DNA of 64,000 nucleotides, from NCBI GenBank assembly GCA_026770705.1, contig JANJGN010000014.1, positions 128,526,001 through 128,590,000 on the forward strand, in the 5' to 3' direction. Numbering within the stretch: the stretch's first letter is position 1; every line of letters starts with the position of its first letter. The position numbers were made by a program, and so were the translations under genes. This DNA comes from Isurus oxyrinchus. Taxonomy: Eukaryota. This document shows positions 12,936-53,912 of the stretch, one piece after another. Under the pieces are notes generated by a model. It ran no database searches. It saw only the letters and a list, made by a program, of their open reading frames with translations, and was not told where the DNA came from.

Positions 12936-12941
12936 ATAACA

Positions 12942-27699: not shown

Positions 27700-29910
27700 A
27701 AATTGATTCACGGGATGTGGGCTTCGCTGGCTAGGCCAGCATTTATTGCCCATCCCTAATTGCCCTTGAAGGTGGTGGTGAGCTACCGCCTTGAACTGCT
27801 GCAACCCATGTGGTGTAGGTACACCCATTGTGCTGTTAGGAAGGGAGTTCCAGGATTTTGACCCAGTGACAGTGAAGGAATGGATATATATTTCCAAGTC
27901 AGGATGGTGTGTGGCTTGGAGGGAAACTTGCAGGTGATGGTGTTCTCATGTGTCTGCTGCCCTTGTCCTTCTAGATGATAATGGTCATGGGTTTGGACGG
28001 TGCTGTCTAAGGAGCCTTGGTGAGTTCCTGCAGTGCATCTTATAGATGGTACACACTGTTGCTACTGTACATCAGTGGTGGAGGGAGTGAATGTTTGTGG
28101 ATGTGGTGCTAATCAATTGGGCTGCTTTGTCCTCAATGGTGTCAAGCTTCTTGAGTGTTATTGGAACTGTGCTCATCCAGGCAAGTGGGGAGTATTCCAT
28201 CACACTCTTGACTTGTGTGTTGCAGATTGTGGGCAGCATTTGGGGAGTCAGGAGATGAGCTACTCACCACAGAATTCCCAGCCTCTGACCTGCTTTTGTA
28301 GCCACAGTATCTATATGGCTAGTCCAGTTCAGTTTCTGGTTAATGGTAACCCCCCAGGATGTTGATAGTGGGGGATTCAGTGATGGTAATGTCATTGAAT
28401 GTCAAGGGGGCGATGGTTAGATTCTTTCTTGTTGGAGATGGTTATTGCCTGGCACTTGTGTGGTGTAAATGTTACTTGTCATTTGTTAGCCCAAGCCTGG
28501 ATATTGTCTAGGTCTTGCTGCATTTGAACACGGGCTGCTTCAGTTTCTGGAGAGTCGCGAATGGTGCTGAACATTGACATCTCCTTCCATCATAAGGTCA
28601 GAATTGGGGATGCTCGCTGATGATTGCTCATTGATGAAGCAGCTGAAGGTGGTTGAGCCGAGGACTCTACCCTGAGGAACTCCTGCAGTGATGTCCTGGA
28701 GCTGAGATGACTGACCTCCAACAACCATAGACATCTTCCTTTGTGTTAGATATGACTCCAACCAGAGGAGAATTCTCCCCCTCCACCACCCCCTCCCACC
28801 CCAATTCCCATTGACTTCAGTTTTGCTAGGGCTCCTTGATGCCACACTCGGTCAAATGCAGCCCTGATGTCAAGGGCAGTCACCCCCATCTCATCTCTAG
28901 AGTTCAGTTCTTTGTCCATGTTTGAGGCTAGTGATTGTGGTTGAGTACAATTATGCTGCTGCTGATGGCCCACAGCACCTCCTGGATGCCCAATGTTGAG
29001 TTGCTAGATCTGTTTGAAATCTACCCATTTAGCATGGTGGTAGTGCCACACAACATGATGGAGGGCATTCTCAATGTGAAGACGGGACTTTGTCTGCACA
29101 AGGACTGTGCGTTGGTCATTCCTATAGATACTGTCATGGACAGATGTATCTGTGGCAGGCAGGCTGGTGATTATGAGGCTAAGTATGCTTTTTCTTGTTG
29201 GTTCCCCCACCACCTGCTGCAGACCCAGTCTAGCAGCTATGCCATTTATGATTTGGCCAGCTTGGTCAGTAATGGTGATACTGAGCCACTCTTGGTGACG
29301 GACATCCGGAGTACATTTTGCATCCTGGCCACCCTTGGTGCATCCTCCAAGTGTTTTTCAACTTGAAGGAGTACTGATTCATCAGCTGAAGGGGTAGAGG
29401 GGTGGGTGGGGTGGGGGGGGGGGGGGGGTGGTAGGGTGGCAGACGCAGCACATGGTAATCAGCAGGAAGTTTCTATGCCCATGTTTGACCTGTGGCCATG
29501 AGACTTCATGGGGTCTGAAGTCAATATTGAGGATTCCTAGGATAGCTCCCTCCTGACTGTATACCACTGCCACCACCTCTGCTGGGTCTGTCCTGCTGGT
29601 GAGATAGGACATGCCCAGGGATCGTGATGGTGGTGTCTGGGACATTATCTGTAAGGTATAATTCCATGCATCTGACTATGTCAGGCTGATGCTTGACTGG
29701 TCTGTGAGACAGCTCCCCCAATTTTGGCACAAGCCTCAGATGTTGGTAAGGAGGGCTTTACAGGGTCGGCAGGGCCTTTGCCCTTTTTTGGTGCCAAGGT
29801 CGATCCAGGGTGGTCAGTCTAGTTTCATTCCTTTGAGACATTTTAGTTGTTTGATACAACTACGTGGCTTGCTAGGCTATTTCAGAGGACGTTTAAGAGT
29901 CAACCATATT
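27700..29910 (-). mobile_element. ORF1-less CR1/L2-group LINE, copy 2 (internal deletion, head lost)
   Basis: APE start (KLGELSHR.VK.QPDIV), EPTR..ILSLI.T, ALDIRAAFDRVWHQG, AGVPQG.VLG; 29850-29910 continues into the SINE-body sequence. Confidence 0.9.
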
Positions 29911-30104
29911 CAATCCAATTGCCAATTAGATAACTTTCTGAAGAGAGTAAAGATTGAAGAGCAAAGGATTTGCACTCATATATAGCACCTTTCATGACTT
30001 TGGCTGTAATGCGCTTTAGGGCATCCTATGGTTTACTTTTAACATGTAGCCACTGTCATAAATGTAGGAAATGGGACAGCCAATTTGCACAAAGTAAGAT
30101 TTTT

Positions 30105-31232
30105 TTCATTCATTTATGGGATGTGGCCGTCATTTACAAGCCCAGCGTTTATTTCCTGTCCTTAATTGCCCTAAAGAAGGTGGTGGTGAGTTGCCTTTTT
30201 TGAACTGCTGCAGTCTATGTGGTGAAGGCACTCCCATAGAGTTAAGAGGGATTTCCAGGATTTTGACCCAATGGCAAGGAACAGTTATGTATTTGTGAGA
30301 CTTGCAGGAGGTGGTATTCCCATGTGCCTGCTGCCCTTGTTCTTCCAGATGATAGAGGCTGTGTGTTTTGGAGGAACAGGCAAAGAGGCCTTGTGAGTTG
30401 CAATGCATCTTGTAGATAGTGCATACTGCAGCCGCAGTGCACTGGTGTGGAGGGAGTGAATGATTAAAATGTTGCATGGGGTGCCAATCAAGTGCGCTGC
30501 TTTGTCTTGGATGGTGACAAGTTTCTTGAGTTTTTCTGGAACTGCATTCATTCAGGGAGGTGGAGAGTGTTCCATCCTAACTTGTGCCTTATTGATGATG
30601 GAAAGCCTTTGGGGAGTCAGGAAGTGAGTCAGTCACTCAGGGAATAGGCCAGCATTTATTGCCCAGAGTCACATCTGAGAGGGGACAGCAGATAAAGGAC
30701 ATCAGTGAACCAGATGAGTTTTTACAACAATTTACAAAGGTCTAACGATGACCATGAAACTTTTAATTCCATCATCTGCAGCGAGATTTGAACCCGGGTT
30801 CCCAGACCATTAATCTGGGTCTCTGGATGACTAGTCCAGTGACAATATCACTATGCCATCACCTCCCCTGTAAATGCCCAGCCTCTGACCTGCTCTGTTA
30901 GCCACAGTTTTTATGTGGCTGGTTCAGTTAAGTTTCTAGTCAATGATGTGGCAACCCAATGATGTTAATGCCTTTGAATCTCAATGGAAGGTAGTTTAGA
31001 CTCTTTCGTGTTGGAGATGCCAGTTAGCAGCCTAAAGCTGAATGTTGTCCAGGTGTTGCTGTGTGCGGGCATGGACTGCCTCAGTATCTGAGGAATTGCA
31101 AATGAAATTAAACACTGGGCATCGGCAAACATTCCCACTTCTGACCTTATGACGTAGGGACTGTTGTTGATAAAGTAGCTGAAGGTGGCTGGACCAAAGA
31201 CTCTACTTTGCGGAACTCCTGCAGCAATGTTC
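30105..31232 (-). mobile_element. 3' part of the same LINE family with a nested tRNA-headed SINE (30647-30868, minus)
   Basis: AGVPQS.V.GP.TFSYFIN..IRSEVGMFAD; nested copy carries the A/B-box head. Confidence 0.8.
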
Positions 31233-31234
31233 CA

Positions 31235-31490
31235 CAAGCAACAATCTGATAATGACCAGATAATCTGTTTCAAATATTGATCAAGAAACTCTAGTTGAGC
31301 TCCCCTGCTTTACTTTAGTAGAGCACCACGAGATCTTTTACATATATCTGAGAGGGGAGATGGGGCCCCGGTTTAATGTGTGATGAGAAAGGTCACACCT
31401 TCGGGATTTTGAGCTTAAAATGTCTTGCGTGGGTCTTTAGCCCACAATCTTCTGACCTAGAGGCAAAAGTGCTACCACTGAGCTACAACA
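31235..31490 (-). mobile_element. Deu-domain SINE fragment
   Basis: ggggccccggtttaatgt..gaaagg; head aaagtgctaccactgagcta on the plus strand. Confidence 0.65.
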
Positions 31491-32674
31491 GAGACAATAG
31501 AGTGGTTATGATGAGAAGGTGGATAGATGGTGTCAGCCCATCAAGAGAGGGATAAAATTTGAGTCAAATGAATTTTCCTGTTGTAAAAAAAGATCCTTAT
31601 TGAATCGAACAAAAAACTTTGCAAACTCCTAATGAAAGTAGGGCCCATGGAATTTGAATATTTGACATAATTTAGTATTCTGTGTTTATCACTTGGAAAG
31701 AGGAACACCATTTATTTTGCAACAAAAGTCCTTTTTTCCCAGTAGCAATGAGCAACAACTTGAATTTTGGCTCATATGATTGGAAGATTATAATCATTTT
31801 CTAACACAAAAAATAAAGTGGATTTAAAAAAAAAATCCACCAGAACTCCTTGATTTAAAAAAAAATCCTTTATTTTAAATTGCTTATTCCTTAAGAACTG
31901 GCTTTAGTATTCTACATTGAAATTTCCATTGATTGCTAAATGGTCTTGACATTGCTTGTTTTTTTCCCATAATAGCAATGTAAACTTGCTCTTCAAAGTG
32001 ATGAGTCTTCAGAAAGAGTAAGATCTAGGGAAGTTCTCAGATAGGGAAATCAACTGTAATTTCACTTGAAGTTGGCATTGTTTTTATGTGAGAAGTTGGT
32101 CATTAATATGATAATTTTGATTGATTTTGGAGTAGAAAGTACTGGGTTCTAAGAGTCAATTGCAAACAAGTAGACATTTATTGGAGTTGCACATCTCCAG
32201 GGATTGTAAAGGGGAAAGGGACACCATGACCTGAAAATTGATTAAAAGAAAGATGAACTTAAATTATAGCTCTTTTTAGCAAAATCGATAATAATTAAAG
32301 TGAGGCTTATACCCTTAAGTGATTATATATACATCAGCACTCTTTTAGTTCTTATGAAGCACCAAGTAAGTTTAGCAGTTCATCTTGTGTGAGATGATAC
32401 CATTTATGGCGAGGTTGATACTGTTCGTAAAACAAAAAATATTGAAATCCCAGAAGCAAAAGCCAGTAAAACTTGGAAATGAAGGGCACCAGTAAATCTT
32501 GGTCTTGTATGCCTTAAAATGGAACTCCAGTATTACTGATTTTTACTGGGATTTGTGAATATAGAACTGTTTTTTCCTTCTGGGATATGTATAATAAATC
32601 CTCACATCTGCAAATGGTAAAGACCGATCAGGACTATAGGTGGAGATCCTTCATTACAGCAAGGTGAAAAAAGG

Positions 32675-33070
32675 AACCTGTTAGCATGTTTCATGATCTC
32701 AGGACATCTCAAAAGTCCTTAGAAACCAGTGAATTAATTTTTGACGTGTTAGTTGTTATTGTAAATACAGTTGTTGTCAATTTGCACACAGCAAGGTTCT
32801 ACAAAACCACTGAGATAAGTGGTCAGACAATGGTGATTGAGGGCTGGATGTTGCTCAGGACACCAGAAAAACTCCCTTGCCCTTGTTTAAATTGCACCGA
32901 GATAGTTTGCAGGTGGACGTTGGATTAAAGACTTATCCAGGAAAGCAGCTTCTTCAGCACTACAGTGAAGAGTCAGCCTTGGTTTAGGTCTTTAAATCCT
33001 TGACCGGGACTTTGGACCCACAACCTCTGACTGAGATGTGAAAGTGCTACAAACTGAGCCAAAGCTGACA
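32675..33070 (-). mobile_element. Deu-domain SINE, degraded
   Basis: Reverse-complement tail, aatttgcacacagcaag, head aagtgctacaaactgagcc. Confidence 0.65.
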
Positions 33071-34064
33071 TCTTGGCGGGCACAGTTGTTGGATGTAACA
33101 TGAATCCGTCCTTTCTCATTCAGCTGCTGCTTGTCCCATTTCAGCAATTCTAGCATTTTCTGGATCTATTTCATCTTAACGCACATTCTACTAATAGAAG
33201 TGTGTTCCTACATTTTTTCACGTGCTCTATGGTTACAAACACATTGATCATGCATTACATTGATGGTGTACAAACACATAGTAAAGTGTCTATGGTGTAA
33301 ATGAGTGAGACATAGAGTGGCTTGCATATAGCTCTGGACACTGGCTAATTGCAGATTGGGTTCCTTCATTGAGCCACTGTTGTCTGGATATTTTTGAATA
33401 TACCACCATGTGATTTTTTTTTTTAAGGATCACTACTTGGTTGGGATGATGAGCATCCTTCCCAACACCCTTCGACATAGAAGACAGTCAAAATCTATAT
33501 CTGTAATGATCATCTATAGTGATTATAAAAATTGCCTTCAGTGAAAACTTTCTGTGAAGTAAGATAGGAATCATTTAGTAAGCAAAATAAAATTACTGAG
33601 AAAAGAATCATTAATTAAAACTGAAAGCTGAAAGGAGACCACTCAAATGTGCGTGAAGCCCTTTAGGGAGTGCTGCTGCTGGGCCAGCCAGTCACTGGCA
33701 CTAAGCCAGGAATAGAGATTGGATTTTAAAACAAAAGCTTCCACTAATTCAGCCATTCATATATTTTCTTTAATAATAATCACCCATCAGAATTGCTGGA
33801 GACATGTAAGCTACCATGTTGCCATTGGATCAGCCACACTTGATTAGTTTTATAATATTCACAAAATTGCAGTGAATGAGAAAAGGCTAATTGTCCCAGG
33901 TAGCTCATCCATCTTGAAAGAAACGAGTCCCACTGTGACCACATCCATCTGTTTCTTCAGTTATTTTGGGGTTGTTGTCTCCATTACCTCACTTGAGATT
34001 ACTATCTGAAATACTTTTTTCTTAATGTGCCAAGAGTGTATTGTTCATTTTCTCATACAGACCA

Positions 34065-34465
34065 ATCTCCATCATAAGATCAGATATGGGGGTATTCACT
34101 GATGATTGCAGTGTTCAGCTCCATCCACTGCAACTCAGATAATGAAACAGTCCTTGCCTGCATCCTGTGACCTCTATCACCTGGGAAGACAAGGAAAACT
34201 GCTGCCTCCAAGTTTCCCACCAAATCACACACCATCCTGACTTGGAATTAAGACACTGTTCCTTCATCACCGCTGGATCAAAATCCAAGAACTCCCTTCC
34301 TCAATGCACTGCAGATGTACCTACACCAAATGGACTGCAGCAGTTCATAACCATCTTCTTTAAGGGCGATGTAAGTGTTTCCCCCAAATGCTCAAGTTCA
34401 TATTGTTTGCCACCTTCTTTAAGTGATGGGCAATAAATGCTGGCCTTGCCAGCAATGCCATCCAG
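34065..34465 (+). mobile_element. Fragments of the ORF1-less LINE 3' region
   Basis: ccatcataagatcagat..gatgattgca; caccatcctgacttggaa; gatgggcaataaatgctggcc. Confidence 0.7.
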
Positions 34466-34754
34466 AGAGTGTCTTCAGTAGTTTTTTGCATCTTGTGCTT
34501 AACTCTTCGCCTCAGTCTGTGATTTCCCCCCATGTGCTCAAGTTCATATGGTTTGCCGACACTCTTGGATTGTCTGGGAGTCTCCCAGAGCCAGTGATTA
34601 GTCTCTGGGGCATTGCTTGGAGAAATGACCCTTATTTACAGTTCCCAGCCTTCCTGTTTGACCAATTAGCAAAACACTCCATGGATCCTAGTGCAATGTT
34701 CCACCCCTGATAATGTATCCTGCTCTGTTTTTGGTGAAGTGGAGGACGAACTGC

Positions 34755-35197
34755 TGAGGAGAGCAGGAGGATTCCGAATTTTGAAGACAGAGAGAAGTAA
34801 GAGATGACTTGGTTGAAACCTTTTAAGATCCCGAGGGGTCTTGACAGGGGTGAATGTGGGGAGGATGTTTCTTCTTGCGAAGGAGTCTAGAACTAGGGGT
34901 CACGGTTTTAAAAAAAAAAAGGGGTTGCTCATTTGAGATGGAGATGAGGAGAATTTTTTTTTTCTGTAAGGGTCGTGAGTCTTTGAAACTCCCTTCTTCA
35001 AAAGGCAGTGAAGCGGAGTCTTTGAATATTTTTAAGGCAGAGCTAGATAGATGTTTAACAAACAAGGAGGTGAAAGGTTATCGGGGTAGGCAGGAATGTG
35101 GAGAGGAGGTTATAATCAGATCAGACATGATCTTATTGAACAACGGAGCAGTCTTGAGGGGTTGAGTGGCCTACTCCTGGTCCTAATTTGTATGTGT
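34755..35197 (+). mobile_element. CR1 3' fragment
   Basis: RVVSL.NSL-like segment and UTR ending ggcctactcctggtcctaatttgtatg. Confidence 0.8.
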
Positions 35198-35335
35198 GTT
35201 TATTTGTAAGAAGAGAGGATTGCAAGGGCCTGAATGCCTGGATGATCCATGTACACTACATGTAGCCAGTCCTGACGATAAATGCTCTGCTTTTCATAAT
35301 TTCACTGTGATAATCTCTCACTTGGGAAGGACTAT

Positions 35336-36790
35336 TGGCCTAGAATTTCAATTATGCCACACCCGTATTTCAGGCACTAAATCAGTGCAGAAGCATAAAG
35401 TAATAGTAGGATTCGCCTGCTCGTTTTCGTCAGGGACCTGCCTTTGGGCACAAACCCGAAGAGGAATAAGGAGTTGGATTTTACGAGTGTGGGAGGGGCC
35501 TTCACATCAGGGGAGAGCACCGGGTGTACTCTGTTGGCCTCCCATCGTGTTCCCGGTTCGCAGCCCTCCTTTATGGTCATTCCATAGAACAGAGGTTTCC
35601 TCTAATGGTAATGGACAACCTGCAGCTACAGCCCTGCCGATGGGTGTGCCTACCTGCCCCTGGCACAGTTAAAAACAAAACTTACCTTGGCGCAGCATCT
35701 CTCTGAGGCGGGCTCGTGTCCTCAATTGGACAATGTTCCATCTGAGGGCCTCTTAATTCTGTCGGTAAAATGTTGGGTCCTGTCTCCTCGGAGTTGGGGT
35801 CTGCTTTCGACCCTGGCAGCAGAGCTTCTTTCCTGCTCAAAGGATTCAGCCCAAGGTTTCTACGCATGTCGGATGACTCGTTTCCAATTTTGGCATGGCC
35901 CAGTGCGTATCATTGCCAGGAGCTAAACTTGCTGAGCAACTCATAGTGCTCATGGCAGGAAGGACCCATCGCTAGTATTATTTAAGGAGATTACGCAGTA
36001 CTCAAGGTTAATTGCTGGTTTGTCATCCCAGGCTTCTGGTTAACTTCTGGACTCTTTTTGACCTGTTTTCTGATGGTGGGCATTTAGTTTTAACTGCTGG
36101 GAAGATCATCCTGCTGGTGCTGCACTTTTTTTTAACCAATTGACTGTAGCCATTGATCTCATACCTCTGCTTTCAGGACTGGAAGTCAAGGGGGAGCAAC
36201 AAGGAGGACAGCACACAACAGGAGAGACTACAGCAAAAGGCAGGAAAAGGAGGAGGGCATTGTGCTGGAGACCATACCCACAGTGGTTAAACAGGCAGCA
36301 TTTCTCCTATGTGACTGTTGCCAAGAAGCAAATACAAGAGGCGTCTTCGCCTCATGGAGCAGGCCATCACAGCGCTCTGTCACCTGCTTTAGCCTCAACT
36401 CGAGCCTCGATCCTGGGTGAAAGTGTCAGTTTTGCTTGCAAGATTTGAGCCTGCACACCTAGACGGCCTGGACTCTCAATTCCCACCTGACACATTCCTG
36501 CATTCCACCGATCGTCGATTTTCAGTTGAGCAGTCTCATTTGTTCATTTCATGCTTGGTTGCACTGCTGAAGGAAATGCAAAGTTACAGTGTTCATGTGA
36601 CCGAGGGTCACATGGATTGGGGTGTGGCAGGATCAACTCTCCTGAGCCTTCTGTTGGCACCCACGTGACCTCAGCAGCACCCCACCAAATTGCAGCTTTC
36701 TGTTTGCGAAAGTGCAGGAGGTTGCACAATGAAAAACGACCCGTGCTGAACTCCCAAAACGTTTCTGGCAGGCGTATTATTTACAGCATG
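35336..36790 (+). mobile_element. Non-autonomous PIF/Harbinger-like element with transposase N-terminal remnant (~36240-36400)
   Basis: RRRALCWRPYPQ..RQHFSY then, after a frameshift, RRLRL..AITALCHLL, resembling HARBI1-type N-termini; starts ggcctagaattt. Confidence 0.5.
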
Positions 36791-36912
36791 AGAGTCTGCT
36801 GGTTCTAGTTCTGCGTGGTAGACATTGACCCTTCTACAATTCAATCCCTTGCAGCACTACACAGCTCCCAGCACAACAGCAATTTTTGGTTTGTTTTATG
36901 CTTCTAAACACA

Positions 36913-37029
36913 GGGCGGAATTTTCTGGCCCCATCATGGTGGGAGCGGGACCATAAAATGTGGTGAGCCATTCAAAAAACCATTGACTTTGGCGGGACAG
37001 TAAAATCCTGCCTGCGTAAAATTCCATCC
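36913..37029. mobile_element. Small MITE
   Basis: gggcggaatttt...aaaattccatcc inverted termini. Confidence 0.6.
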
Positions 37030-38214: not shown

Positions 38215-38580
38215 CTGTTGAGTATGATTTCTGGGAGAACGTGGCCTATTCTCTGTAGTGTTGAACTGACAGAGTTGCCATCTTTAGAATGAGATGTTAA
38301 ACCGAGGGCCTAGTCTGCTGTCTTGGGTAAAGTATCCCAAGATACTATTCGGACAAAGAGCAGAGAAGTTCCTCCAGTTTTATGGCCAATATTTAATCCT
38401 CAGCCAACATAACAAGAACAGATTTTCTGGTCATTATCACATCACTGTTTGTGGGATTTTGCTGTGTACAAATTGGTTGTTGCATTTCCTACATTACAAC
38501 TGTGACCACATTTTTAAAGTACTTAATTAGCAGTAGGAGGCACTGACGTGGTGTAAAGACAAGTCAGTCTTTCTTTCAAG
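38215..38580 (+). mobile_element. Deu-domain SINE
   Basis: gagatgttaaaccgagggcc..ggccaatattt..cattatcacatcactgtttgtggga..tttcctacattacaac. Confidence 0.75.
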
Positions 38581-40800: not shown

Positions 40801-40857
40801 CCTTATTCTCCTTTCATTCCTTCCTTCCTATCCTCCGCCAACGTCATTGGAAGAAAT

Positions 40858-43800
40858 GACTTTCCTCCTCATCATAAGGACAGAAGTGGGATGTTTGCCA
40901 ATGGTTGCATAATGTTCTGTGCCATTCGTGACTTCAGATACTGAAGCAATCTGTATCTGCATACATTCAATCCTTAAATAATAGCCATTCATAATTCATA
41001 AATTCATCATTGTGCCTTTTAATGAAGTTCTCCAATATATCTTGGCAACTCACGCCTCATACCTTTGTAGACTGTTTAGATTTAGATTAATTTAGATTTG
41101 TTTAAATTTGGATCTAGATATAGATTGGGCAAACCAAATTATTAACAACACTATGGCGGATGAATTCCTGGAGCGTGTATGTGATGGTTTTTTAGACCAA
41201 TATGTCGCGTAACCAGGTTGGGGATAGGCTATCCCAGAATTGATATTGTGCAGTGAGAAGGGGTTAATTAATCTTCCGTGGAGTCCTTTAAGGGACAGTA
41301 ACCATAACAAGGTAGAATTCTTAATTAAGCTGGAGAGTGAAGTAGTCAGGTCCAAAACTAGGATTCTAAATCTAAACAAAGGAAGCTATGAAGGAATGAG
41401 GTGTGAGTTGGCTAAGATAGATTGGGGAACTTCATTAAAAGGCGTGACAGTGAATAGACAATGACTAATATTTAAGGGACAAATGTATTCATTGCAACAG
41501 TTATACATTCCTTTCTGACACAAAAACACAACAGGCAAAGTGGCCCAGCCATGGCTAACAAAAAAAAATTAAGGATGGTATTAGATCAAAAGAGGAGTCA
41601 TATGAAGTTGTTAGAAAAAGTAACAAGCCTGAGGATTGGGAGCAGTTTAGAATTTGGCAAAGGAGGACCAAGAGATTGATTAAGAGGAGAACAATAGAGT
41701 ATGAGAGTAAACTTGCAAGGAACATAAGAGTGGACTGTAAAAGCTTCTATGAGGATAAATAAAGGAAAAGATTAGTGAAAACAAATGTAGGTCCCTTACA
41801 GCCCGAAACAGGAGAATTTATAGTAGAGAACAAGGAAATAACGGAGAAATTAAACAACAATTTTAGTTCTGTCTTCACAGAGGAAGACACAAATAACTTC
41901 CCAGAAATGCTATGGAACCAAGGGTTGAGCAAGAAGGAGGAATTGAAGGCAATAAAAAAGTAGTGTTGGAGAAATTAACAGGGCTGAAAGCTGATAAATC
42001 CTTAGGGCCTGATAATCTATAGCCCAGGGTACTAAAGGAGATGGCCATGGAAATAGTGGATGTGTCAGTTGTCATCTTCCCAATTCTGTAGATTCTGGAA
42101 CAGTCCCAGCAGATTAGAGGGTGGTAAATGTAACCCCACTATTTAAAAAGGAGGAAAGAAGAAAACAGTGAATTAAAATAACATCAGTAGGAGGGAAAAT
42201 GCTAGAGTCTATTACAAAGTATGTGATAACAGGACACTTAGAAAAGATCAATGGGATTAGACAATGTCAGCATGGATTTATGAAAGGGAAATCATGTTTG
42301 ACAAACCTCTTGGAGGTTTTTGAGGACGTAATTAGCAGAATAGATAAGAGAGAACCAGTGGATGTTGTGTATTTGGATTTTCAGAAAGCTTTTGATAATG
42401 TCCCACGTAAGAGGTTAGTGTGTAAAATTAAAGCACACAGGATTGAGGGTAATATATTGGCATGGATTGAGGATTGGTTAGCAGGCAGGAAACAGTAGGA
42501 ATGAATGAGTCTTTTTCAGAATGGCAGGCAGTGACTAGTGGGGTACCACAGGGATCAGTGCTTGGGCCCCAGCTATTCACAATATATATCAATGATTTAG
42601 GTGAGGGCTCCAAGTGTAATCTTTTCAAGTTTGCTGACGACATGAAACTTGGTGGGAATGTGAGTGGTAAGGGGGGTGTTTAAAGGCTTCAAGCCTCCAA
42701 GTTGAGTGAGTGGGTAAATACATAGCAGATGTGGCATAATGTGGCATAATGTGGATAAGTGTGAAGTTATCCACTTTGGTAAGTAAAACAGGATGGCTGA
42801 GTATTATTTAAATGGTGATAGATGGGGAAATATTGATATACAAAGGGACCTAGGTACACCATCACTGAAAACAAGCATGTAGGTGCAGCAAGCAGTTAAG
42901 AAGGCAAATAGTATGTTGGCCTTCATTGTAAGAATATTGAGTACAGGAACAAGGCTGTCTTACTGTCGCTTTATAGGGCCTTGGTGAGAGCACACCTGGA
43001 GTATTGTATGCAGTTTTGATGATCTCACCTAAAAAAAGATATACTTGCCATAGAGGGAGTGCAGCGGAGGTTCACAGGCTGATTCCTGGGATGGCACAAT
43101 TCTCATATGAGGAGAGATTGAGTTGACTGGACCTGTATTCACTGAAGTTTAGAAGAATGAGGGGATCTCATTGAAATGTATAAAATTCTAACTAGGATGG
43201 ACAGACTGGATGCAGGGATGATGTTTCCTGTGGCTGGAGAGTCTAGAACAAGAGGTCACAATCTCAGGATACGGGGTAGGCCATTTATGACTGAGATCAG
43301 GAGAAACCTCTTCACTCAGAGGTGGTGAACTGTGGAATTCTCTACCACAGAAGGCTGTGGAGGTCAAGTCACTGAATATGTTGAAGAAGGAAATAGATTT
43401 CTAGACTCTAAAGGCATCAAGGGGTATGGGGATAGAGGTGGATTATGACATTGAGGTAGAATATCAGCCATGATCATATTGATTGGTGGAGCAGGCTCAC
43501 AGGACTGAATGACCTACTCCTCCTATATTCTATGTTTCTATGTATGCAGCAAGGTCTGGACAACATTCAGTTTTGGGCTAATAAGTGGCAAGTAAACTTC
43601 ACACCACACAAGTGCCAGGCAATGACCATGTCCAACAAGAGAGAATCTAGTCTTCTCCCCTTGACATTCAACAGCATTACCATCACTGAATCCCCACTAT
43701 CAACATTCTGGGAGTTGCCATTGACTTGAAACTGAATTGGACTAGCCATATAAATACCGCGGCTACAAGAGCAGGTCACAATCTGGGAATTCTGTGGAGA

Positions 43801-44280
43801 GTAACACATCTCCTGACTCCCCAAAGCCTGTCCACAATCTACAAGGCAGGAGTGTGACGGCACTGTCCATTTGCTTAAAACTGCAACTTCAAACAGCACT
43901 CAAGAAGCTCAACACCATCCAGAACAAACAAAGCGCCCACTTGATTAGCATCCCTTTGACCACCTTAAACACTCACTCCATCCGTCACTGATGCACAGTG
44001 GCAGCAGTGTGTACCATCTACAAGTTGCATTGTAGCAACTCACCAAGCCTAATTCCAACAGCATCTTCCAAACCCACGACCTCCACATATCATCCTGACT
44101 TGGAACTATATTAGCTGTTCCTCACTGTTGTTGGGTCAAAATCTTGGAACTCCTTTCCTAACAGCACTGTGGGTGTACCTGATACAAGAGGGATGCTCAC
44201 CACCACCTTTTCAAGGGCAGTTAGGGATGACAATAAGTACTGGCCTAGTCAGCGATGCCCACATCCCATGAATGGATACA
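40858..44280 (+). mobile_element. ORF1-less LINE 3' half (40858-40962 and 43538-44280) split by a CR1 insertion
   Basis: catcataaggacagaagtgggatgtttgc..gatactgaagca resumes as atgcagcaaggtctggacaacattcag and runs to the tail gcccacatcccatgaatg. Confidence 0.8.
40970..43537 (+). mobile_element. Degraded CR1 LINE (APE C-terminus, RT, 3' UTR) with an inverted 5' segment
   Basis: DS.HNKVEF, QHGFMKGKSCLTNL, YLDFQKAFD.VP, SGVPQGSVLGP, KFADD; many stops; tail ctatattctatgttt. Confidence 0.92.
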
Positions 44281-44677
44281 TTTAAAAAAAATTAAAAACA
44301 AAACACATTAATTGGTCGATCAACTCATTGATATGTTTGTGGTATCATGCTTCATGCAAAATGGCTACTTTCACCACTGCCCCCCCCCCCACCCTGATGC
44401 ACAGCACCAACTATATTTCAAAAGTAATTAATTGATGGAAAGTACTTTGGGCTAATTCAACTCGTAGGACAGGTTGTGACATTCCTTGCTGAATTACAAC
44501 ATGTAATTACACTTCAAAAAGTTCATAATTGGCTGCAAAGTCCTGCTCTAGCTTCGGCTGCTACGTAAGTCCAATTCTCCTGTTCTCCAGTGGTGGCTAC
44601 AAACTACAAAGGCAAAGCGTGCCTCGTGTATGATTCGTTTGCTTTCTCTACTTTTCCGATACACTTGTATTAGACAT

Positions 44678-44803
44678 GGGCTGGGATCTTCTAGCCCCGC
44701 CAATGGCAGGCGTTGCCACGGGTGGGATGGGGACATTTGGAGGGCAGCCATCACATCCCACCCGCGATGATACCTGCTGCTGAGAGGGCTGGAAAATCTG
44801 CCC
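44678..44803. mobile_element. Small MITE
   Basis: gggctgggatcttc...ggaaaatctgccc imperfect inverted termini, GC-rich. Confidence 0.5.
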
Positions 44804-45132
44804 GTCCTGGGCAATGAAGGTTGTTCTTGGCTTGACTGGGTTCCCTGTTTTCAAAGAAAACTACTCAAAATAACTAATAATATTTTGTATTTTTATAACT
44901 CACGCAGTTGCGTTTTTACGTCACTCATCTTGTTATTATCTAGAGTCTTCTAAAGTATTCAGTTTTTGGTATCATCAAAGAATCCTTTTGTTGCTGTGTA
45001 GCAAGTTTTTGTGTTAGTAAGAGTGATGGAAAGACACTTTGAGGATTTTGTTGATTGAGAAGTGTTAGATTTCCAGTTATGTGGGCTCAGCATTCTCATA
45101 GAGACCTCACAGAATGATTTTCTTGCTTTATC

Positions 45133-47703
45133 TGTAGTAGAAGTGTCTGGCATGTACAGGGTTAATGTCATACTGAGTACAGTATGGCCGCACAGTGATG
45201 TAAGAAGACACATCACGTTGACTCTAGGTCGAGGTCGTGTTGACCAGACACATGTTAAAGCCTATGATGGGGATAGCTCCATTCCTGTACCCTTTACTGT
45301 ATGTTTGTAAATAGTGACAAGTAGTTAATAAAGACTTGCTGTTAATACACAGAAGACTACGAAGATTTCTTTAACAGACATGTACTGTAACCAACATGAT
45401 CCCAACATCGTGCCAGCTCCAGATTAAAAGCCCCCATCCTCACGGAAATTCTGAAAGATGGAAAAGGATATCTTCAACGGGTTCTAAACTGAGAGAGTCT
45501 CCCAACTGAAGCTACAGACGCCGAGAAAATTCACCAGAAAATGTTCCAGGGAGAAGAGCCTGGAAGCTAAGGGAAGACGTTTTACTGCAGCAGAAGACCT
45601 CATACAATTTCGCTTGGAAGTCCAGCTTCAGCACGCAGAGCTCATCGCCTGCAAGGATGAGCTAAATCTTTATTCAGGCTGCAACCAGTCCTGAGAAGCC
45701 CTTTTCTCTAAGTCAGTCAGAAGCATTGTTTTGAATGAAACCCGTTGCTAATCCTGGTTTACTGACTCAGAGGCTCAACAATTGGCCTCTGGGTCGAACA
45801 GAAAAAACAAATTAATAATTAACTTAACTCAGGAACCTCGTGACCATCTGAATCCTTACACAGCAAACCGGCAGTCCATTCAAATGCCTCGCTACTCGCA
45901 AGGTTACATCATTGATTAAATCAAGTTGGCAGACCGTCGACCCAAGGAGCCGTTGTTGGACATTATTCGTCCTGACGCATGCCGCCACCATTTTGTGAAG
46001 CCGACCAAAACTGGCAAGCAAGGGAAATCCATTGTTCTGCAGTGAACGGCGACGCCGTCTTGGAAGCCTGAGAGCTCCTAAGGCTGTATCCACCACACTT
46101 TTAAAATTTCCAGCATGGATCACAATTGTGTGCTTCCAACTCCACTGGGATTCACCCAAGGCCCAGACCAGTTACAGAATTAGGGTATTTAGAGGAAGCG
46201 ATTATTAAGATACAGCATTGCTACAGGTATCATTAGTGAAAATCTGAAGCGCAACAAGTAAACACACTTCTTTATTCAACAGGGCCAATTGCAGACAACA
46301 TAATTGCATGACAGGATATTGATGAGTCAACTGCCAAATTTGAGAGTTTTCAAATCCTTTAATGTTTATTTCAACTTGAGATCCAACAAAATATTGGAAA
46401 GAGCTAAATTCAATAAGAGTCCAAATGCCCGGAGAACCTGTCGATTCCTTCATAAACGATCTCTACAGGATCTGTAACCAGCCTTTCTCTCTTCTGAGCA
46501 GGATTGCCTGCATAGCCCTGGATCTCCTCCAGAAGGCAGAGGATGTAAAGACTGCCACTGTTGTTAGCCGGCTAGAACAGCACAATCCCAATTGCTCAAA
46601 CACTAAAGAGTATTCATTCTTGGATTTCTCCTTCAATCTGTCATCTCTCTTTGTGCAGTAGGTTTGTCCATTATCATTCCGGATCCTAAAAGTTCTTCAT
46701 GGTCAGACCAACCTACCATCCACAAGACTACCATGACATCTCCAGTGGAAGTGGTCCAGAGAACGATCAGTCTAAGAAGCCCCTACCACCAAATACGATA
46801 ATGGTACAGCTGGTCAACATAGCAACCACCGTGTGCACATATACTACAGCTCCAGCCAAGGATGCTGCAGCAGGGTAGCAGTCTACTGCCATCAGCCTCA
46901 AAAAACAGAGGTAAGCACAGCACTCAATCATTTTGTTGCAACAGGAATGCTCTTCCTCAGCCTCAGAGGGCTTCCAGATTTCCCACTAGAAAAAGCAGAG
47001 CCAAGGAGATGAATACCATCTTCGTCCACCTCACAATAAACAACCAAGAGTAACAGCAACCATGGGTCAACGCAACAGCCAAACTGACCATGCGTGGTTC
47101 AGCACTAAGCAATCGAAGAAAAGAATGAAAGCATACCCAAATGCCAGTCCAACCTCCCAGCCAACAGCAAGAACCAGACCAAACAGAGCCTACCACTCCT
47201 CCGACAATGGTGAATGAGATATGGAAAGGTTATAAGGCCTCCAGACTGTCTGAGCCTCTAACTTCAATGACTTGAAAGGGGGAATTGGAGTATTGAGAAA
47301 GTTGTTAATGCTAATACCATAATGGCAATAATGCTGGAATAACATTAAGGCTGTGACAACAAGGTAAATGCACAAGACATGTAACAATGTAAGACCTGAA
47401 CTAAACTAAATAATTCTATATCCATGGGATAAAGACTTGGCAGAGGTTTAGTAGAAGGGTCTGGCACATACAGGGTAAATGTGAGACTGAGTACAGTATG
47501 GCCACACTGTGATGAAAGAAAGCACATGATCTAGAGTTAGGATCAGTATGGTGTTGATTAGAGGTGTGCTAGGACATAAGATAGCTTCATGCCTTTGTAA
47601 CTTTTTACAAATATACAGTAGAATAAAGTAGTTAATAAAGACTTGCTGTTGACATTCAGAAGACTATGAAGATTTCTTTAACAGACATGTTCTGTAACCA
47701 ACA
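45133..47703 (+). mobile_element. Internally deleted Ty3/Gypsy LTR retrotransposon
   Basis: LTRs 45133-45396 and 47447-47703 (TG..CA, AATAAA); gag remnant ERAKFN..PGEPVDSFINDLYR fused to protease end NQPFSLLSRIACIALDL; pol end GKVIRPPDCLSL*; purine-rich tract before the 3' LTR. Confidence 0.88.
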
Positions 47704-48306
47704 CCATCCTAAAATATCTTTATCTGTTTGCAGTTTTGTGGCCAGAGTTTACTACTTAAATTTCATCTTCACACTGCATACCTACAAAGACATGAGGATT
47801 GAGTTGCATAAAGCGCACATGAAGTTGATGACGTTGGTTTCTTTATTGATGTTTGTTAATGAAATGGTGAAGGTCGATTTTTGCACTGCATAAAAGTCTG
47901 AAGTACTAGGTTGCAAAACAATCACAACAGTTGGTGCTGCACACCCCCACCCTTGGATTTGCAGGCTCTGAGAGTCTGGCCGGAGGTGTAAATTATGTAT
48001 TGGATTTTACAGTCTGTTCTATTAAATTCCAAACCTGTAAAACAATTTATGCAGGCAAATTTGACTTGTCGACACCCCTTGACTTTTCCCAATGCTTGGT
48101 TCCTTGAGTAATCAATAGCAAAATGTTCTGAAAGGGTAGGTCCTGTCTCACTATGCTGAAACACAGAATTGGATTGCATAGAAGTGGAGCATATCCTCCA
48201 CCATGCTGTGTTACCTCTTCTGCTTTTGCCCAATCAGTTCATCTCCCCTCCCATGTCAATTTGTTAACATATTTCCCTGAGCAGGGACATTAACGTTAGA
48301 GACAAT

Positions 48307-48984
48307 GGCTCAGATCTTTCTGCCTCCAGACAGTCGGAGTCCTGATATACGACCCATTATGTGTGCGGGACACCGCAGAAGTCCAGACACGCTGACCCCC
48401 AAGTGAATTACCCGGGAAGCTTGCACTACCGATCGGAAATTCCTCTGTTCCCTGGGACCCTCCACAAACATCTCCTACTCTGAAATAGAGTCAGAGATTT
48501 CGGCCAGTTGCACAATACTTACCTGGATAGATACCCAGGAAATGTTAGGCAGAAAAATCCTACATAACTGACACCCCCAATCACTCACACTGATGCCCCC
48601 CACCCACCCGAATAACCCTCTGACCTGACCTGACTACTTCCGACCATCAGGCTACCAACCCCCCATCCGACCTGACTGGCCTCCGATTTGACTTCCCCTC
48701 CCCGACCCTACCCGCTGTTGCCCTACCACTCTACCTATTCACTCATTCATCCGTTCACCAATTAATCCATTCATTAACTAGCTAGTGCCATAAAAGGAGG
48801 CATGCGCTGTCTTTCCCTAAAGCTACTCGGCTGCAATGGACTTCTCCGATGCACTGTACGCTTCATGTCTGGAAAGCCGGGCTTAGGAGACCTGGCCAGA
48901 AATACAGAGCTGTGTTAGGGTGCAGAAAAGTACTGTTGGAGCAGCAATCCAATGGTGATTGCTGCTTCGCAGGAGATCTGGGCC
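48307..48984. mobile_element. MITE / non-autonomous DNA transposon (Harbinger-like termini)
   Basis: ggctcagatctttctgc...gcaggagatctgggcc, ~16-bp inverted termini; flanks aat/att. Confidence 0.7.
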
Positions 48985-49546
48985 ATTACCTTTGGTTCTG
49001 CACTTTGACCTGTGGGTTTACAGTATGTAAAATTTTTTTTCATTCAGGGGACATTGCTGGCTGGGCCAGTGTTTATTGCCCATCCCTAATTGCCCTTGAA
49101 AGTGGTGGTGGTGAGCTGCCGCTTTGAACCTCTACAGTCCATGTGCTGTTATGGAGCGAGTTCCAGGATTCTGACCACTGCCCCTGCTCCACCACCCCCC
49201 CCACCCACTCCTGAATTTTGACCCCCTAACCAACACCCCCTACCCTCTGACCAACCCTCTGACCAGACCTGACTACTTCCCACCACTCGACTACTCCCCT
49301 GTCCCACCCCCGACCATACCTGACTAGCCCCCAACTAGGTTCAGCTCACCTGCCCTCCTACCCACCTGTCACCCTAGCAGAAATGCAAAGGAGTGTTGAA
49401 CAAACAGCATTCCAAATCATTGATTTCCCCACTACAGAGCGAATACTGAATTAAATTTGTTTTGTTTGTTTTGAACACATCCATGTTTCTTGCATGCCTC
49501 CTAGTTGCCTATTCCTAATATCGTTTTACATTTTCCTTTCTCAAAT

Positions 49547-50729
49547 TGTTACAGGCAGGACAGACTGTTCAAACTGCACTGATTTCCTCTCACCACTTTC
49601 CCATAAGCAGAAGGTGTTTTGAATTAGTTTTTAAAGATTAAACAGTGATGTGTTTCCCAAACCCCTTGGATTTTGTGATGGAGTTTTACAACTAATCCAC
49701 AGCAACCTTGAGTTAGGATTAACTCAGAAGGTTAGTTTGTTTTCACATGTTCAAAACCCATGATAAGTAGTGTCCACAACATCCCTCTCCATACATTCAC
49801 ACAATAAAGGGAGGGATAAATAAAAGGAGTTTTACAATGGAAGAAAAATGAATATTGGTTCACATGAGTTCCAGGGTCCAAAGTCTGAATCCAATGGGGA
49901 ATTCTTTCAAGTGAGCTTTCGTGTTCAGCTGGCTGAATACTGACATTGTAAGATTTGCTTTTCCATTTGGGCTGATGTCACAAGGTGAGGTAGGCATGTG
50001 GAGACTGAGTCAGCTCTGTAGGCAATGGTACAAGATCTTCCAGCAGGGTCAGGTTCGATGGGTAGGTTGTTCTGCCTGGAGGAGCCTGCTTCTTTATCTC
50101 TTACCAGTGGGATGTTAATCAGCAGATTGGCTGTGAAAATCAAAGATGTAATATTAAACTGACCAGAAAGCCAGAGGCTTGGGCCATGTGACCTACCTTC
50201 TGTGCAATGACTTCAAAGGATTTTTATCCATCATCTGAAATTGGCTTTGGTTTCAGGACTGATAATGTCTCAGTCATTAGTTGTTGAAAGGGGTTCCATT
50301 TATGCTGAGGGCATGGTGTTTGGGAAGCCATTGTCTCCACAGACCCGCTGACTCCACTAACAAGATTGGTTTATCAAATGCAAATGACATCCCTGTAGTT
50401 CTCTTTGCAATTGGTCAAAACAGTCCCAGGTTTGATGTGAGTCTGTTAGTCATTCTCTAGGCACGTGTGACATTCCAGAAACTGAGGAAAGAATTATTTG
50501 TCCTCGTAACTCCTGGGGATAGCTCCCAGTGAGAGGATCATCTCTGTGATCAGGTGACTTGTAGCAGCCATCTTAATTTTCTTGAGTGCAAAAAGACCAG
50601 TTCTAAAAATAGGCAGCAATAAGGATAAAGTTTTTTTTTTGAAAATATATAGTGGTAGGTTTCTTTCTGTGTTGTAGGAACCAACAAATTACTTCTCCAC
50701 AGTCTTTTGAAAAGCTATTGGGTATAACA
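49547..50729 (-). mobile_element. Possible old solo LTR
   Basis: TGTTA...TAACA termini and layout similar to the other solo LTRs; no target duplication seen. Confidence 0.35.
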
Positions 50730-50761
50730 TCCAGCACTTTTTGGTGAGATATTCTATGTTT

Positions 50762-53700
50762 TCTTTCATTCATTCACAGGATGTATGCTTCAATGGCTGA
50801 GCCAGCATTTATTGCCCATCCCTAATTACCCTTGAGAAGCTGGTAGTGAGCTGCCTTCTTGAACTTCTGCAGTCCATGTGGACTGCATAGTTACACCAAT
50901 AGTGCTGTTAGGAAGGGAGTTCCAGGATTTTTACCCAGCGACAGTGAAGGAATGGCGATATATTTCCACATCAGGATGGTGAGGGACTTGGAGGGGATGT
51001 TCCCTATCTGCTGCCTTTGTCCTTCTAGGTGGTAATGGTCATAGGTTAGGAAGGTTCTGTCTAAGGAACCTTGGTGAATTCCTGCAGTGCATCTTGTAGA
51101 TGGTACACACTGCAGCTACTGTGCATCGGTGGTAGAGGGAGTAAATGTTTGTGGATGTGGTGCCAATCAAGCGGACTGCTTTGTCCTGGATGATGTCCAG
51201 CTTCAATGTTGTAAGAGCTGCACATACAGGCAATTGGAGAGTATTCCATCACAATCTTGACTTGTGGCTTGTGGATGGTGGACAGGCTTTGGGGAGTCAG
51301 GAGGCAAGTTATTCATCGCACGTTTCCTAGCATCTGACCTGCTCTTATAGCCACAGTATTTATATGGCTAGTCCAGTTCAGTTTCTAGTCAATGGTAACC
51401 CCCAGGATGTTGCTAGTGGGGAATTCAGTGATGGTAATGCTGTTGAACATCAAGGAGCGATGGTTGGATTCTCCCTTGTTGGAGATGGTCATTGCCTAAC
51501 ACTTGTGTGGCATGAATGTTACCTTCCACTTGTCAGCCCAAGCCTGGATATTGTCCAGGTCTTGCTGCATTTGGACATGGACTGCTTCAGTATCTGAGGA
51601 GTCACGAATAGTGCTATTGTGCAATCATCAGCGAACATCCCCACTTCTGACCTTATGATGGAAGGAAGGTCATTGACGAAGCAGCTGAAGACCTTTGGGC
51701 CTAGGACACTACCCTGAGGAACTCCTGCAGTGATGTCCTGGAGCTGAGATGACTGATCTCCAACAACCACAGCCATCTTCCTTTGTGCTAGGTATGACTC
51801 CAACCAGCGGAGAGTTTTCCCCCTGATTCCATTTTTGCTAGGGCTCCTTGATGCCACACTCCGTCAAATGCTGCCTTGATGTCAAGGACAGTCACTTTTA
51901 CCTTACCTCAGGAGTTCAATTCTTTTGTCCATGTTTGAACCAAGGCTGTAACGAGGTCAGGAATTGAATGGCCCTTGCAGAACCCAAACTGGGCTTCAGT
52001 GAGCTGGCTATTGCTAAGCAAGTGCTGCTTAATAGCACTGTTGATGACATTTTCCATTATTTTACTGATGATCGAGTGTAGACTGATGGAGCAGTAATTG
52101 GCTGGGTTGCATTTGCCTGGCTTTTTGTGTACAGGGCAATTTTCCACATAGCTGTGCAGATGCCAGTGTTGTAGCTATACTGGAACAGCTTGGCTAGGGG
52201 TGCAGCAAGCTCTGGAGCACAAGTCTTCCGTACTATTGCCAGGGCCCAGAGCCTTTGCGGTATCCAGTGCCTTTAGCTGTTTCTTGATATCACATGGAGT
52301 GAATTGAATTGGCTGAAAACTGGCATCTATGATGATGGGGACCTCTGGAAGAGTCCGAGATGGATCATCCACTCATCACTTCTGGCTGAAGATTGTTGCA
52401 AATGCTTCAGCCTTATCTTTTTCACAGCTGTGCTGGGCTGCTGCATCATTGAAGATGGGCATACTTGTGGAGCCTCCTCCTCCAGTGAGTTGTTTAATTG
52501 TCCATCATCATTCACGACTGGATGTGGCAGGACTGCAGAGCTTAGATCTGATCCGTTGGTTGTGGGATCGCCCAGCTCTGCCTATCACTTGCTGCTTGGC
52601 ATGCAAGTGGTTCTCTTTTATTGCTCCACCAGGTTGACACCTCATTTTTCTGTATGCGTGGTGCTGCTCCTGGCATGCCCTCCTGCACTCTTCATTGAAC
52701 CAAGGTTGATCCCCTGTCTTGATGGTAATGGTAGAGTGGGGGATATGCCAGGCCATGAGGTTACAGTTTGTGTTGGAGTATAATTCTGCTGCTGCTGATG
52801 GCCCACAGTGCCTCATGGATGCCCAGTCCTGAGTTGCTAGATCTGTTCGAAATCTATCTCATTTAGCACAGTGGTAGTGCCACACAACACGATGGCGGGT
52901 ATCCTCAATGTGAAGGCTGGGCTTCATCTCCACAATGACTGTGCAGTGGTCACTCCTACCGATACTGTCATAGGCAGATACATCTGCGGCAGGCAGGTTG
53001 GTGAGGATGAAGTCAAGTATGTTTTTCCCTCTTGTTGGTTCCCTCACCACCTGCCGCAGACCCAGTCTAGCAGCTATATAATCTAGGACTCAGCCTGTAG
53101 TAGTGCTACAGAGCCACTCTTGGTGGTGGACGTGGGTGTCTGACTTCATTCTGGGCCCTCTTGACACCCTCTGTGCTTCCTCAAGTGATATTCAACATGG
53201 AGGAGCACTGATTCATCAGCTGAGGGAGGGCAGTAGTTGGTAATCAGCAGGAGGTTTCCTTGCCTATGTTTGACCTGATGCCATGAGACTTCATGGGGTC
53301 TCATGTCAATGTTGAGGACTCACAGGGCAATTCCCTTCCGACTGTATACCACTGCCATCACATCGGCTGGGCCTGTCCTGCAGGTGGAACAGGCCATACC
53401 CAGGGATGATGACGGTGGTGTCTGGGACTTTATCTGTAAGGTATGATTCTGTAAGGATGACTATGTCAGGCTGTTGCTTGACTAGTCTGTAAGACAGTTC
53501 TCCCAAGCTTGGCACTAGCCCCAGATGTTGGCAAGGAGGACTTTGCAGGGTCAACAGGGCTGTGATTGCAGTTGTTGTTTCTGGTGCCTAGGTCAATGCA
53601 GGGTGGTCCATCCAGTTTCATTCCTTTTTTGTGTCCTTGGAGTGGTTTGTTACAACTGAGTAGCATGCTAGGCCATTTCAGAGTCGACCACATTGCTGCT

Positions 53701-53912
53701 GTGGGGGTCTGGAGTCACATGTAGGCCAGACCAGGTAAGGACGACAGATTTCCTTCGCTAAAGGACATTAGTGAGTGAACCAGATTTACAACAATCGACT
53801 TTTAATTCCAGGTTTTTTACTGAATTCAAATTCCACCATCTGCCATGGTGGGATTCGAACCCACGTCTCTGGATTACTAGTCCAATGACAATACCATTAT
53901 GCCATCGCCTTC
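50762..53912 (-). mobile_element. Near full-length ORF1-less APE-RT LINE (CR1/L2 group) with tRNA-derived 5' head
   Basis: Head 53842-53912; ATG at 53621; APE (QPDIVILTESYL, EPTRG.NILD.ILTN, SDH); RT (AQFGF..GHS, DI.AAFD, VPQGSVLGP, MFADD); stop near 50822; (TGAA)n tail; disrupted by indels. Confidence 0.92.
53842..53912 (-). promoter_or_regulatory. tRNA-Thr(AGT)-like Pol III internal promoter at the LINE 5' end
   Basis: A-box TGGCATAATGG (53894-53904), anticodon arm TGGA-CTAGTAA-TCCA, T arm GTGGG-TTCGAAT-CCCAC with a consensus B-box (53851-53861). Confidence 0.8.

Follow-up and report, generated by a model that had tools for sequence, protein, structure and literature searches.

The locus studied here, a window of 64,000 nucleotides from Isurus oxyrinchus, contains a LINE that starts with a tRNA-derived head, and raises the question of whether RNA polymerase III (Pol III) could transcribe such an element along its whole length. 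The initial annotation had noticed that its sense strand is poor in runs of three or four T (T3, T4), and had proposed selection for Pol III read-through of an entire coding region. The one T4 and about eight T3 runs that it gave for the 3.1-kb copy were recovered: we counted eight runs of three or more T (T3+), against 25.7 ± 4.3 in mononucleotide shuffles, where roughly 20 or more had been anticipated, and 15.2 ± 2.9 in dinucleotide shuffles (p = 0.013). The single T4 compares with 5.5 (p = 0.013) and 2.5 (p = 0.24) expected, respectively. For the 2.2-kb copy, the absence of internal T4 stood (3.3 expected, mononucleotide shuffle), but the T3+ runs number five rather than about four (16.3 expected), the fifth being the start of a tail T5 that extends past position 27700. 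Neither copy is short of A or G runs (A3/A4, G3/G4), and a deficit of C3 shows up solely with the dinucleotide shuffle (p = 0.007). The T4 runs reported for the CR1 element were found again (Table 1), as were two in the older plus-strand copy, at 43571 and 44208, where the family consensus has no T-run. Taken alone, the T4 deficit of a single copy is weak, and it is the T3 deficit together with the family-level tests that carries the result.

Table 1. Features of the window relevant to the T-run analysis
Feature	Position	Strand	Remarks
Full-length dead Zenon copy (3.1 kb)	50760..53912	-	87.9% identity to family consensus
tRNA-derived head	53840..53909	-	ARAGORN tRNA-Thr; box A 53904-53894 and box B 53861-53851 read from sequence
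Non-coding body, common to local SINE	53655..53839	-	sequence comparison
Broken single frame (endonuclease + reverse transcriptase), no ORF1	50822..53650	-	RVT_1 match
3' tail	50760..50821	-	predicted stem-loop, AATAAA 50813-50808, TGAA repeats, A tail
Sole sense T4 of the full-length copy	52316..52319	-	C>T change relative to consensus
Second Zenon copy	27700..29910	-	5'-truncated within body; ~850 internal nt missing; T5 in tail, no internal T4
Older Zenon 3' fragment	43544..44290	+	~79% to consensus; two T4 runs not in consensus
Very decayed Zenon 3' fragment	30100..31320	-	~70% to the other copies; shows no T3 deficit any more
SINE: first ~297 nt of the LINE joined to its last ~69 nt	24176..24500	+	sequence comparison
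Second SINE copy, same kind	61256..61578	+	sequence comparison
CR1 LINE, control	1152..2876	+	26 T3+, 5 T4
Penelope-like reverse transcriptase frame, control	14920..16986	+	25 T3+, 8 T4

We assign the tRNA-headed LINE, from its sequence, to the elasmobranch Zenon LINEs of the CR1 group (Stuart et al. 2026, PMC13343379), which are also about 3.3 kb long, devoid of ORF1 and A-tailed. The family consensus (3.27 kb) opens with a head that carries boxes A and B, followed by a body of about 200 nt, a single endonuclease-reverse transcriptase frame of 969 codons and an A tail. Two Zenon traits are present: the frame stands without ORF1 (its homologs carry PF03372/PF14529 and PF00078, and the window copy matches RVT_1), and short A tails follow TGAA repeats. 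A motif of the window occurs in three Zenon rows of the PMC13343379 supplement, and, as judged by eye, the elasmobranch consensuses agree with the shark consensus over their first 400 printed letters. In a reverse transcriptase tree that holds no named reference Zenon sequence, the nearest nodes have supports of 0.54 and 0.16, and the closest protein matches reach 43 to 45% identity. The element does not fit the 'short, non-coding' description of SINE2, given its length and a frame under purifying selection: dN/dS is 0.18 between subfamilies, and common variants comprise 28 synonymous against 19 non-synonymous changes. The copies themselves are dead, with stops in all 30 loci selected by protein similarity and no intact copy found. 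No clear target-site duplication was seen among 12 full-length copies. A search of one genome for a divergent sister family returned only the same Zenon family, and viral contigs yielded one weak locus.

As a type-2 Pol III unit would, the consensus has internal boxes near its 5' end, box A at nt 8 and the box B core at nt 73, according to the usual patterns of these boxes. Among the 30 protein-selected copies, 12 begin at nt 28 or earlier and none has a different 5' end, and five of seven extended copies selected by their reverse transcriptase begin within the head. The tRNA-derived head is therefore the fixed 5' end of the family, and the sole one among copies selected without it. Box conservation in dead copies (0.90 and 0.92, against 0.90 for the spacer) is uninformative, because these copies decay neutrally. 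Across five species, both boxes are kept by eye in the printed sequences while the spacer varies. Within the first 400 letters printed in PMC13343379, again by eye, all seven elasmobranch consensuses have the head first and no T4, although box B is imperfect in the ray, whereas the three from hagfish and coelacanth are headless and contain T4+ runs. Rfam returned one chance snoRNA match in the head region and nothing on eight loci, so that no ribozyme was found. The available main text of PMC13343379 has no mention of 'tRNA' or 'polymerase III', and leaves head and T-run purge unremarked; our literature search found neither feature described.

The depletion seen in the window proved much stronger across the family. 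The consensus of 27 copies has no sense T4, conserved T4+ runs having been sought as evidence against the proposal, and six T3 (five after CpG correction). Its coding sequence holds three T3, against 11.6 ± 2.5 under synonymous shuffling, a value as low as this being reached in 0 of 2000 shuffles; runs of A, C and G are normal in the same test. Where codons leave a synonymous choice between C and T, T is taken in 152 of 328 cases if it stands isolated (46%), in 45 of 143 if it gives a run of two and in 3 of 40 if the resulting run is longer (p = 7e-7; 4/40 and p = 3e-6 without CpG correction), with p = 0.07 for the A/G mirror. TTTT, TCTTT, TATTT and TGTTT, the shortest terminators according to the available text of PMC8466645, are all absent from the sense strand and occur 21, 3, 3 and 6 times on the antisense strand; the consensus agrees here with the lack of internal T4 or TVTTT expected of a type-2 Pol III unit. 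A second consensus, from the 30 protein-selected loci (98.4% identity), and the older subfamily are also free of T4, as are 27 of 62 near-full-length copies. Judged by the codon usage of the element itself, the lack of T4 falls short of significance (1.75 expected, P = 0.12). A third-position model does make it significant (4.1 expected, P = 0.01), but with that model A3 and A4 are likewise fewer than expected. The T4 common to 26 copies sits at a TTTCG site, as fits CpG decay. Among 165 copies, C>T changes that create T3+ are rarer (synonymous p = 3e-5), but the non-synonymous C>T class and its G>A mirror trend alike, so that mutation context may contribute to this rarity.

The depletion was not matched in the elements used for comparison. 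T usage shows no such effect of runs in the shark CR1 (83/140 versus 36/61, p = 1.0) or in the Penelope element (101/256 versus 29/97, p = 0.11). In 112 related invertebrate LINE frames, a set that leaves out the closest protein matches, the log-odds average -0.05 (SD 0.36, minimum -0.80), against -2.2 for the shark, computed by hand. Three relatives of 51 to 56% GC (L221, L168 and L156) have 15, 37 and 31 T3 for 18.9, 31.8 and 32.7 expected; L221 has a single T4 in its frame, and another relative, L209, has none, like the shark element. Zenon and related CR1-group LINEs of hagfish, coelacanth and invertebrates resemble the shark element in their frame of about 950 amino acids, in many cases lacking ORF1 and in several A-tailed, but have ordinary T-runs and no head (0 of 60 loci with ARAGORN, 0 of 85 with the box A/B pattern).

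Several known elements share part of this architecture. The tRNA-derived SINEs, including T+ SINEs such as B2 (PMC8466645, available text), likewise have a box A/box B head, a G-rich start and no internal terminator, and may also resemble the shark element in a variable T-run that lies close to an AATAAA ahead of the A tail; the shark element is ten times longer and protein-coding. Persaeus (PMC6740152), internally deleted from a lepidopteran Zenon, is a short element made of two Zenon ends like the shark SINE, but has neither tRNA homology nor a Pol III promoter, which the shark LINE and SINE both carry. Cassandra, Helenus and Ajax (TRIMp3), described in the available text of PMC10886601 as non-SINE retroelements with a Pol III promoter, are, unlike the shark LINE, short non-coding LTR elements. 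DeuSINEs (SacSINE1, AmnSINE1) include a tRNA-headed shark SINE with a CR1-group tail, as here, but apparently with a different body. Set by eye against three domains in the printed supplement of PMC7245038 (Deu, Meta and UCON3), the body showed likeness to none of them, a comparison that covers these domains rather than the SacSINE1 sequence itself. A DeuSINE/SacSINE1 identity of the body finds no support in the Deu alignment.

Head and sense strand together are probably best explained by Pol III making the 3.3-kb RNA, since it would stop at T-clusters. This supports the proposal of the initial annotation, the depletion being strand-specific, acting on synonymous codons and extending to non-canonical terminators; Pol III as its cause is what we infer. 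TFIIIC and Pol III would initiate at the G-rich start, and a source copy that gained a T-cluster would yield a shortened RNA lacking the 3' tail on which reverse transcription depends, and so leave no offspring. The RNA would also give the protein in cis, and might end where the tail or flank has a T-run. AATAAA is present at the 3' end, and of 87 tails 18 have T4+ ahead of the As and 44 a single T, with no age trend (p = 0.98). As the frame has no in-frame ATG over 284 codons, translation might start by some non-standard route; an out-of-frame ATG lies at nt 330. We give even chances to the fuller reading, in which one uncapped Pol III transcript would be both mRNA and template: a 3.3-kb coding Pol III gene, selectively recoded to drop its terminators, common to sharks and rays, translated with no in-frame AUG, and giving SINEs by simple internal deletion. 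No route was found by which an uncapped Zenon RNA would be translated, which counts against Pol III, as does a depletion that extends to T3 and TT. In addition, Pol III processivity is regarded as a restriction on element length (PMC10886601, available text). Assembled contigs of four presumed-RNA runs from four organisms cover all 30 bins of the element, although contigs cannot reveal start, strand or polymerase.

It is conceivable, although rather unlikely, that a captured SINE head sits on a Pol II transcript and that T-clusters were lost through another RNA-level pressure (U-rich processing, splicing, decay signals or innate sensing). A capped RNA would remove the translation problem, and LINEs are generally regarded as Pol II transcripts (PMC10886601 and PMC5786205, available text). 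Moreover, the depletion reaches down to T3 and even TT, below the measured terminator threshold, TTT being only a weak terminator in mammalian cells (PMC8466645, available text). However, such pressures should also affect CR1, Penelope and the 112 relatives, none of which responds; the boxes persist despite the variable spacer; and an AATAAA lies at consensus nt 112. Still less probable in our view is a dual mode, in which the Pol III RNA would be reverse-transcribed and the protein made from capped Pol II read-through, the element moving as a giant SINE. This would account for the T-run purge while sidestepping translation, and is in keeping with a first in-frame ATG at codon 285 and with the abundance of the SINE that has both ends of the LINE. 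On the other hand, the constraint on the protein indicates that source copies kept their own, as fits cis use of one RNA, and the absent ATG troubles a capped RNA as well.

Composition, mutation bias, CpG handling or the way the consensus was built could also have produced the depletion as a side effect, but this is very improbable and already largely refuted. The frame does contain little T (19.5%) and little Phe (1.9%, near the bottom of the range of 120 homologs), and the C>T bias among copies may be mutational. Against this, T is free at isolated synonymous sites, the effect survives without CpG correction and appears in single copies as well as in three consensuses, relatives of similar GC content have near-expected T3, and the antisense strand is not depleted. 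Avoidance of self-insertion or of UV dimers was rejected because the antisense strand retains its T-runs.

LINEs are classically coding elements transcribed by Pol II, and SINEs non-coding elements transcribed by Pol III. The shortness of SINEs has been attributed to weak Pol III processivity (PMC10886601, available text). If our reading is correct, this division would be broken by a LINE that has succeeded in several species with a tRNA promoter and with no terminators on its coding strand, and Pol III could serve a 970-codon frame. The Zenon LINE would then offer one natural substrate for three questions, namely the range of Pol III, the translation of uncapped Pol III RNA and the possible origin of SINEs through deletions in a Pol III LINE, and the synonymous T-run test a cheap screen for further coding elements transcribed by Pol III.

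The sense strand of the Zenon LINE avoids runs of T, and the family as a whole strongly supports this depletion as a real signature of its sequence. A search of the source genome (G000) with the 5' 616 bases of the element gave 13,554 candidates, 40 of which were scored; 39 loci were fetched and 26 of them aligned with the window copy, 13 being left out because of large insertions or truncations. The resulting consensus (3.27 kb, no ORF1) opens with a tRNA-like head, in which box A lies at nt 8 and the core of box B at nt 73. After a body of about 200 nt comes a single frame, which spans 969 codons if two stops due to CpG decay are allowed for, and then a short tail carrying a predicted stem-loop, an AATAAA, repeats of TGAA and As. 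No intact copy was found among those examined, and dN/dS is 0.18. Homologs exist in sharks, together with many endonuclease-RT proteins of about 950 aa on contigs of 3-4 kb. At loci L080, L081, L093, L094, L096 and L099, LINE nt 3102-3161 have given rise to a 56-bp tandem array, with up to about 16 units inside the stretch covered.

Features of the window and their sense-strand runs of T
Feature	Coordinates (strand)	T3	T4
Zenon, 3.1-kb copy	50760-53912 (-)	8 (T3+)	1
Zenon, 5'-truncated copy	27700-29910 (-)	5 (T3+)	0 (internal)
Tail T-run of the truncated copy	27702-27698 (-)		
Zenon, older 3' fragment	43544-44290 (+)		2
Out-of-frame ATG (consensus nt 330)	~53622 (-)		
CR1 LINE	1152-2876 (+)	26 (T3+)	5
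Penelope-like RT frame	14920-16986 (+)	25	8
Penelope-like element	12926-14160 and 14651-17485		
Short SINE copies	24176-24500 (+), 61256-61578 (+)		
Short element, other junction	61020-61200 (-)		

The counts in the window bear out the initial annotation for the 3.1-kb copy and for the T4 runs of CR1; in the truncated copy T4 is indeed absent internally, and T3 runs number five rather than about four. Shuffling the 3.1-kb copy yields 25.7+-4.3 (mononucleotide) or 15.2+-2.9 (dinucleotide) runs of T3+, its T4 deficit taken singly being weak (p=0.24, dinucleotide shuffles). At the site of its T4 the family consensus has no T-run, nor does it at those of the older fragment, which had been described as absent from other copies.

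Conserved T4 runs, looked for as evidence against the depletion, are absent from the whole consensus (T3 = 6, or 5 with CpG correction), from a second consensus built on 30 protein-picked loci (98.4% identical) and from that of an older subfamily (23 copies picked by eye from 165). Synonymous codon shuffling of the frame predicts 11.6+-2.5 T3 runs, against 3 observed, and runs of the other three bases are normal; for T4 it predicts 1.75 against 0 (P=0.12), and a third-position model, in which A-runs too fall short, predicts 4.1 (P=0.01). The sharpest test is that of synonymous context: at C/T sites, T is used in 152 of 328 isolated positions, in 45 of 143 that make TT and in 3 of 40 that make T3+ (p=7e-7; 4 of 40, p=3e-6, without CpG correction), the A/G mirror giving p=0.07. 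Five-base windows holding four T occur once against 9.6, and TTTT, TCTTT, TATTT and TGTTT, all absent from the sense strand, number 21, 3, 3 and 6 on the antisense strand. Of the 16 common variants that introduce a T, none produces a run longer than two, and dead copies have gained about one T4 per 3.2 kb. An allele-frequency test among copies was confounded by mutation context.

Neither shark CR1 nor related frames match this depletion. The shark CR1 consensus (20 loci) has 32 T3 and 6 T4 and no synonymous context effect, and the Penelope frame gives p=0.11 in the context test. Of the related loci, 161 came from contigs of metagenome, viral and genome origin, which do not include the DNA of the closest proteins, and 112 of the 161 carry a frame of at least 700 aa; their T3 observed/expected ratio is 0.71-1.85, against 0.17 for the shark element, and their context log-odds -0.05+-0.36 (minimum -0.80), against -2.2 (by hand). 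No tRNA was found in 60 related loci tested, and no box A/B pair in 85. One T4 lies in the frame of L221 and none in that of L209 (54-2789; 912 codons, 5.6 expected, 5' end missing), and four close protein relatives (P0013, P0014, P0016 and P0019) have 1.7-1.9% Phe, as low as the shark protein; L209 and these four may belong to further lineages with a Pol III head. Intact LINE frames of animal type also occur in several genome bins of bacteria and archaea (many of L223-L287), where they probably represent DNA of a host or of environmental eukaryotes. The Penelope-like element has a 688-aa open RT frame and a duplicated 3' part (1.2 kb, 97% identical).

The head belongs to the LINE and is its fixed 5' end. 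Among 30 loci picked with a distant invertebrate protein, that is, by protein rather than by head, 12 start at or before nt 28 and one at nt 46, the other 17 being truncated at points dispersed over nt 119-940; no alternative 5' end common to copies was seen. RT-selected copies extended upstream start in the head in five of seven cases and are truncated near nt 375 in two. In the first 400 letters of each row printed in PMC13343379, where the family is already named Zenon, seven elasmobranch consensuses (five species) open with the head, and those of hagfish and coelacanth have none at their start; the imperfect box B of the ray consensus as printed counts against. In 29 of the 30 loci compared, the short SINE corresponds to LINE nt ~8-297 followed by nt ~3198-3266. 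Another short element links LINE body and 3' end at a junction other than that of the SINE, a hint that internal deletion has occurred repeatedly. Assignment of the body to DeuSINEs was not upheld by the Deu alignment printed in the PMC7245038 supplement, compared by eye. Upstream of the frame, L141 and L222 (related loci) carry a short motif that looks similar, by eye, to the 5' region of coelacanth Zenon as printed, without a match in Rfam.

Ahead of the A tail, 40 nt past AATAAA, 87 G000 copies carry a T-run of 1 to 8 (T1 44, T2 19, T3 6, T4 4, T5+ 14), a layout resembling that of T+ SINEs; the length of the run shows no trend with age. It could be a terminal terminator or reflect slippage after insertion. 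At an internal T-A5 site, T4 is reached in 0 of 68.

The family itself is known. We found neither its tRNA head nor its T-run purge described in the open literature consulted; entries in Repbase or Dfam, papers in subscription journals and further supplements may bear on this. The main text of PMC13343379 contains neither 'tRNA' nor 'polymerase III', and the whale shark preprint, in the part consulted, mentions Zenon once.

The initial annotation saw here selection for Pol III read-through. The purge and the head stand, and Pol III is the likely cause, judging from a fixed box A/B head and from T-clusters lost strand-specifically through synonymous codon choice in a protein under purifying selection. 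In mammalian assays the shortest Pol III terminators are TTTT and TVTTT, TTT being weak (PMC8466645). That T3 and TT are depleted as well would also be compatible with another pressure against U; under Pol III, it could come from weak termination adding up over 3 kb, from a margin against mutation or from a termination threshold that is lower in sharks.

As for translation, the first in-frame ATG of the main frame is codon 285, with none for 284 codons. Preceded by an A-rich stretch, an out-of-frame ATG at nt 330 is conserved among copies and present in six of the seven printed elasmobranch heads (by eye; PMC13343379); the frame of 35 codons that begins there overlaps the start of the endonuclease. 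Rfam revealed no ribozyme in the head region and eight loci. Under the Pol III reading, the polymerase would transcribe the whole element, and the same RNA would likely supply the protein; if a T-cluster arose inside a source copy, the RNA made from it would lack the 3' tail and copying would fail.
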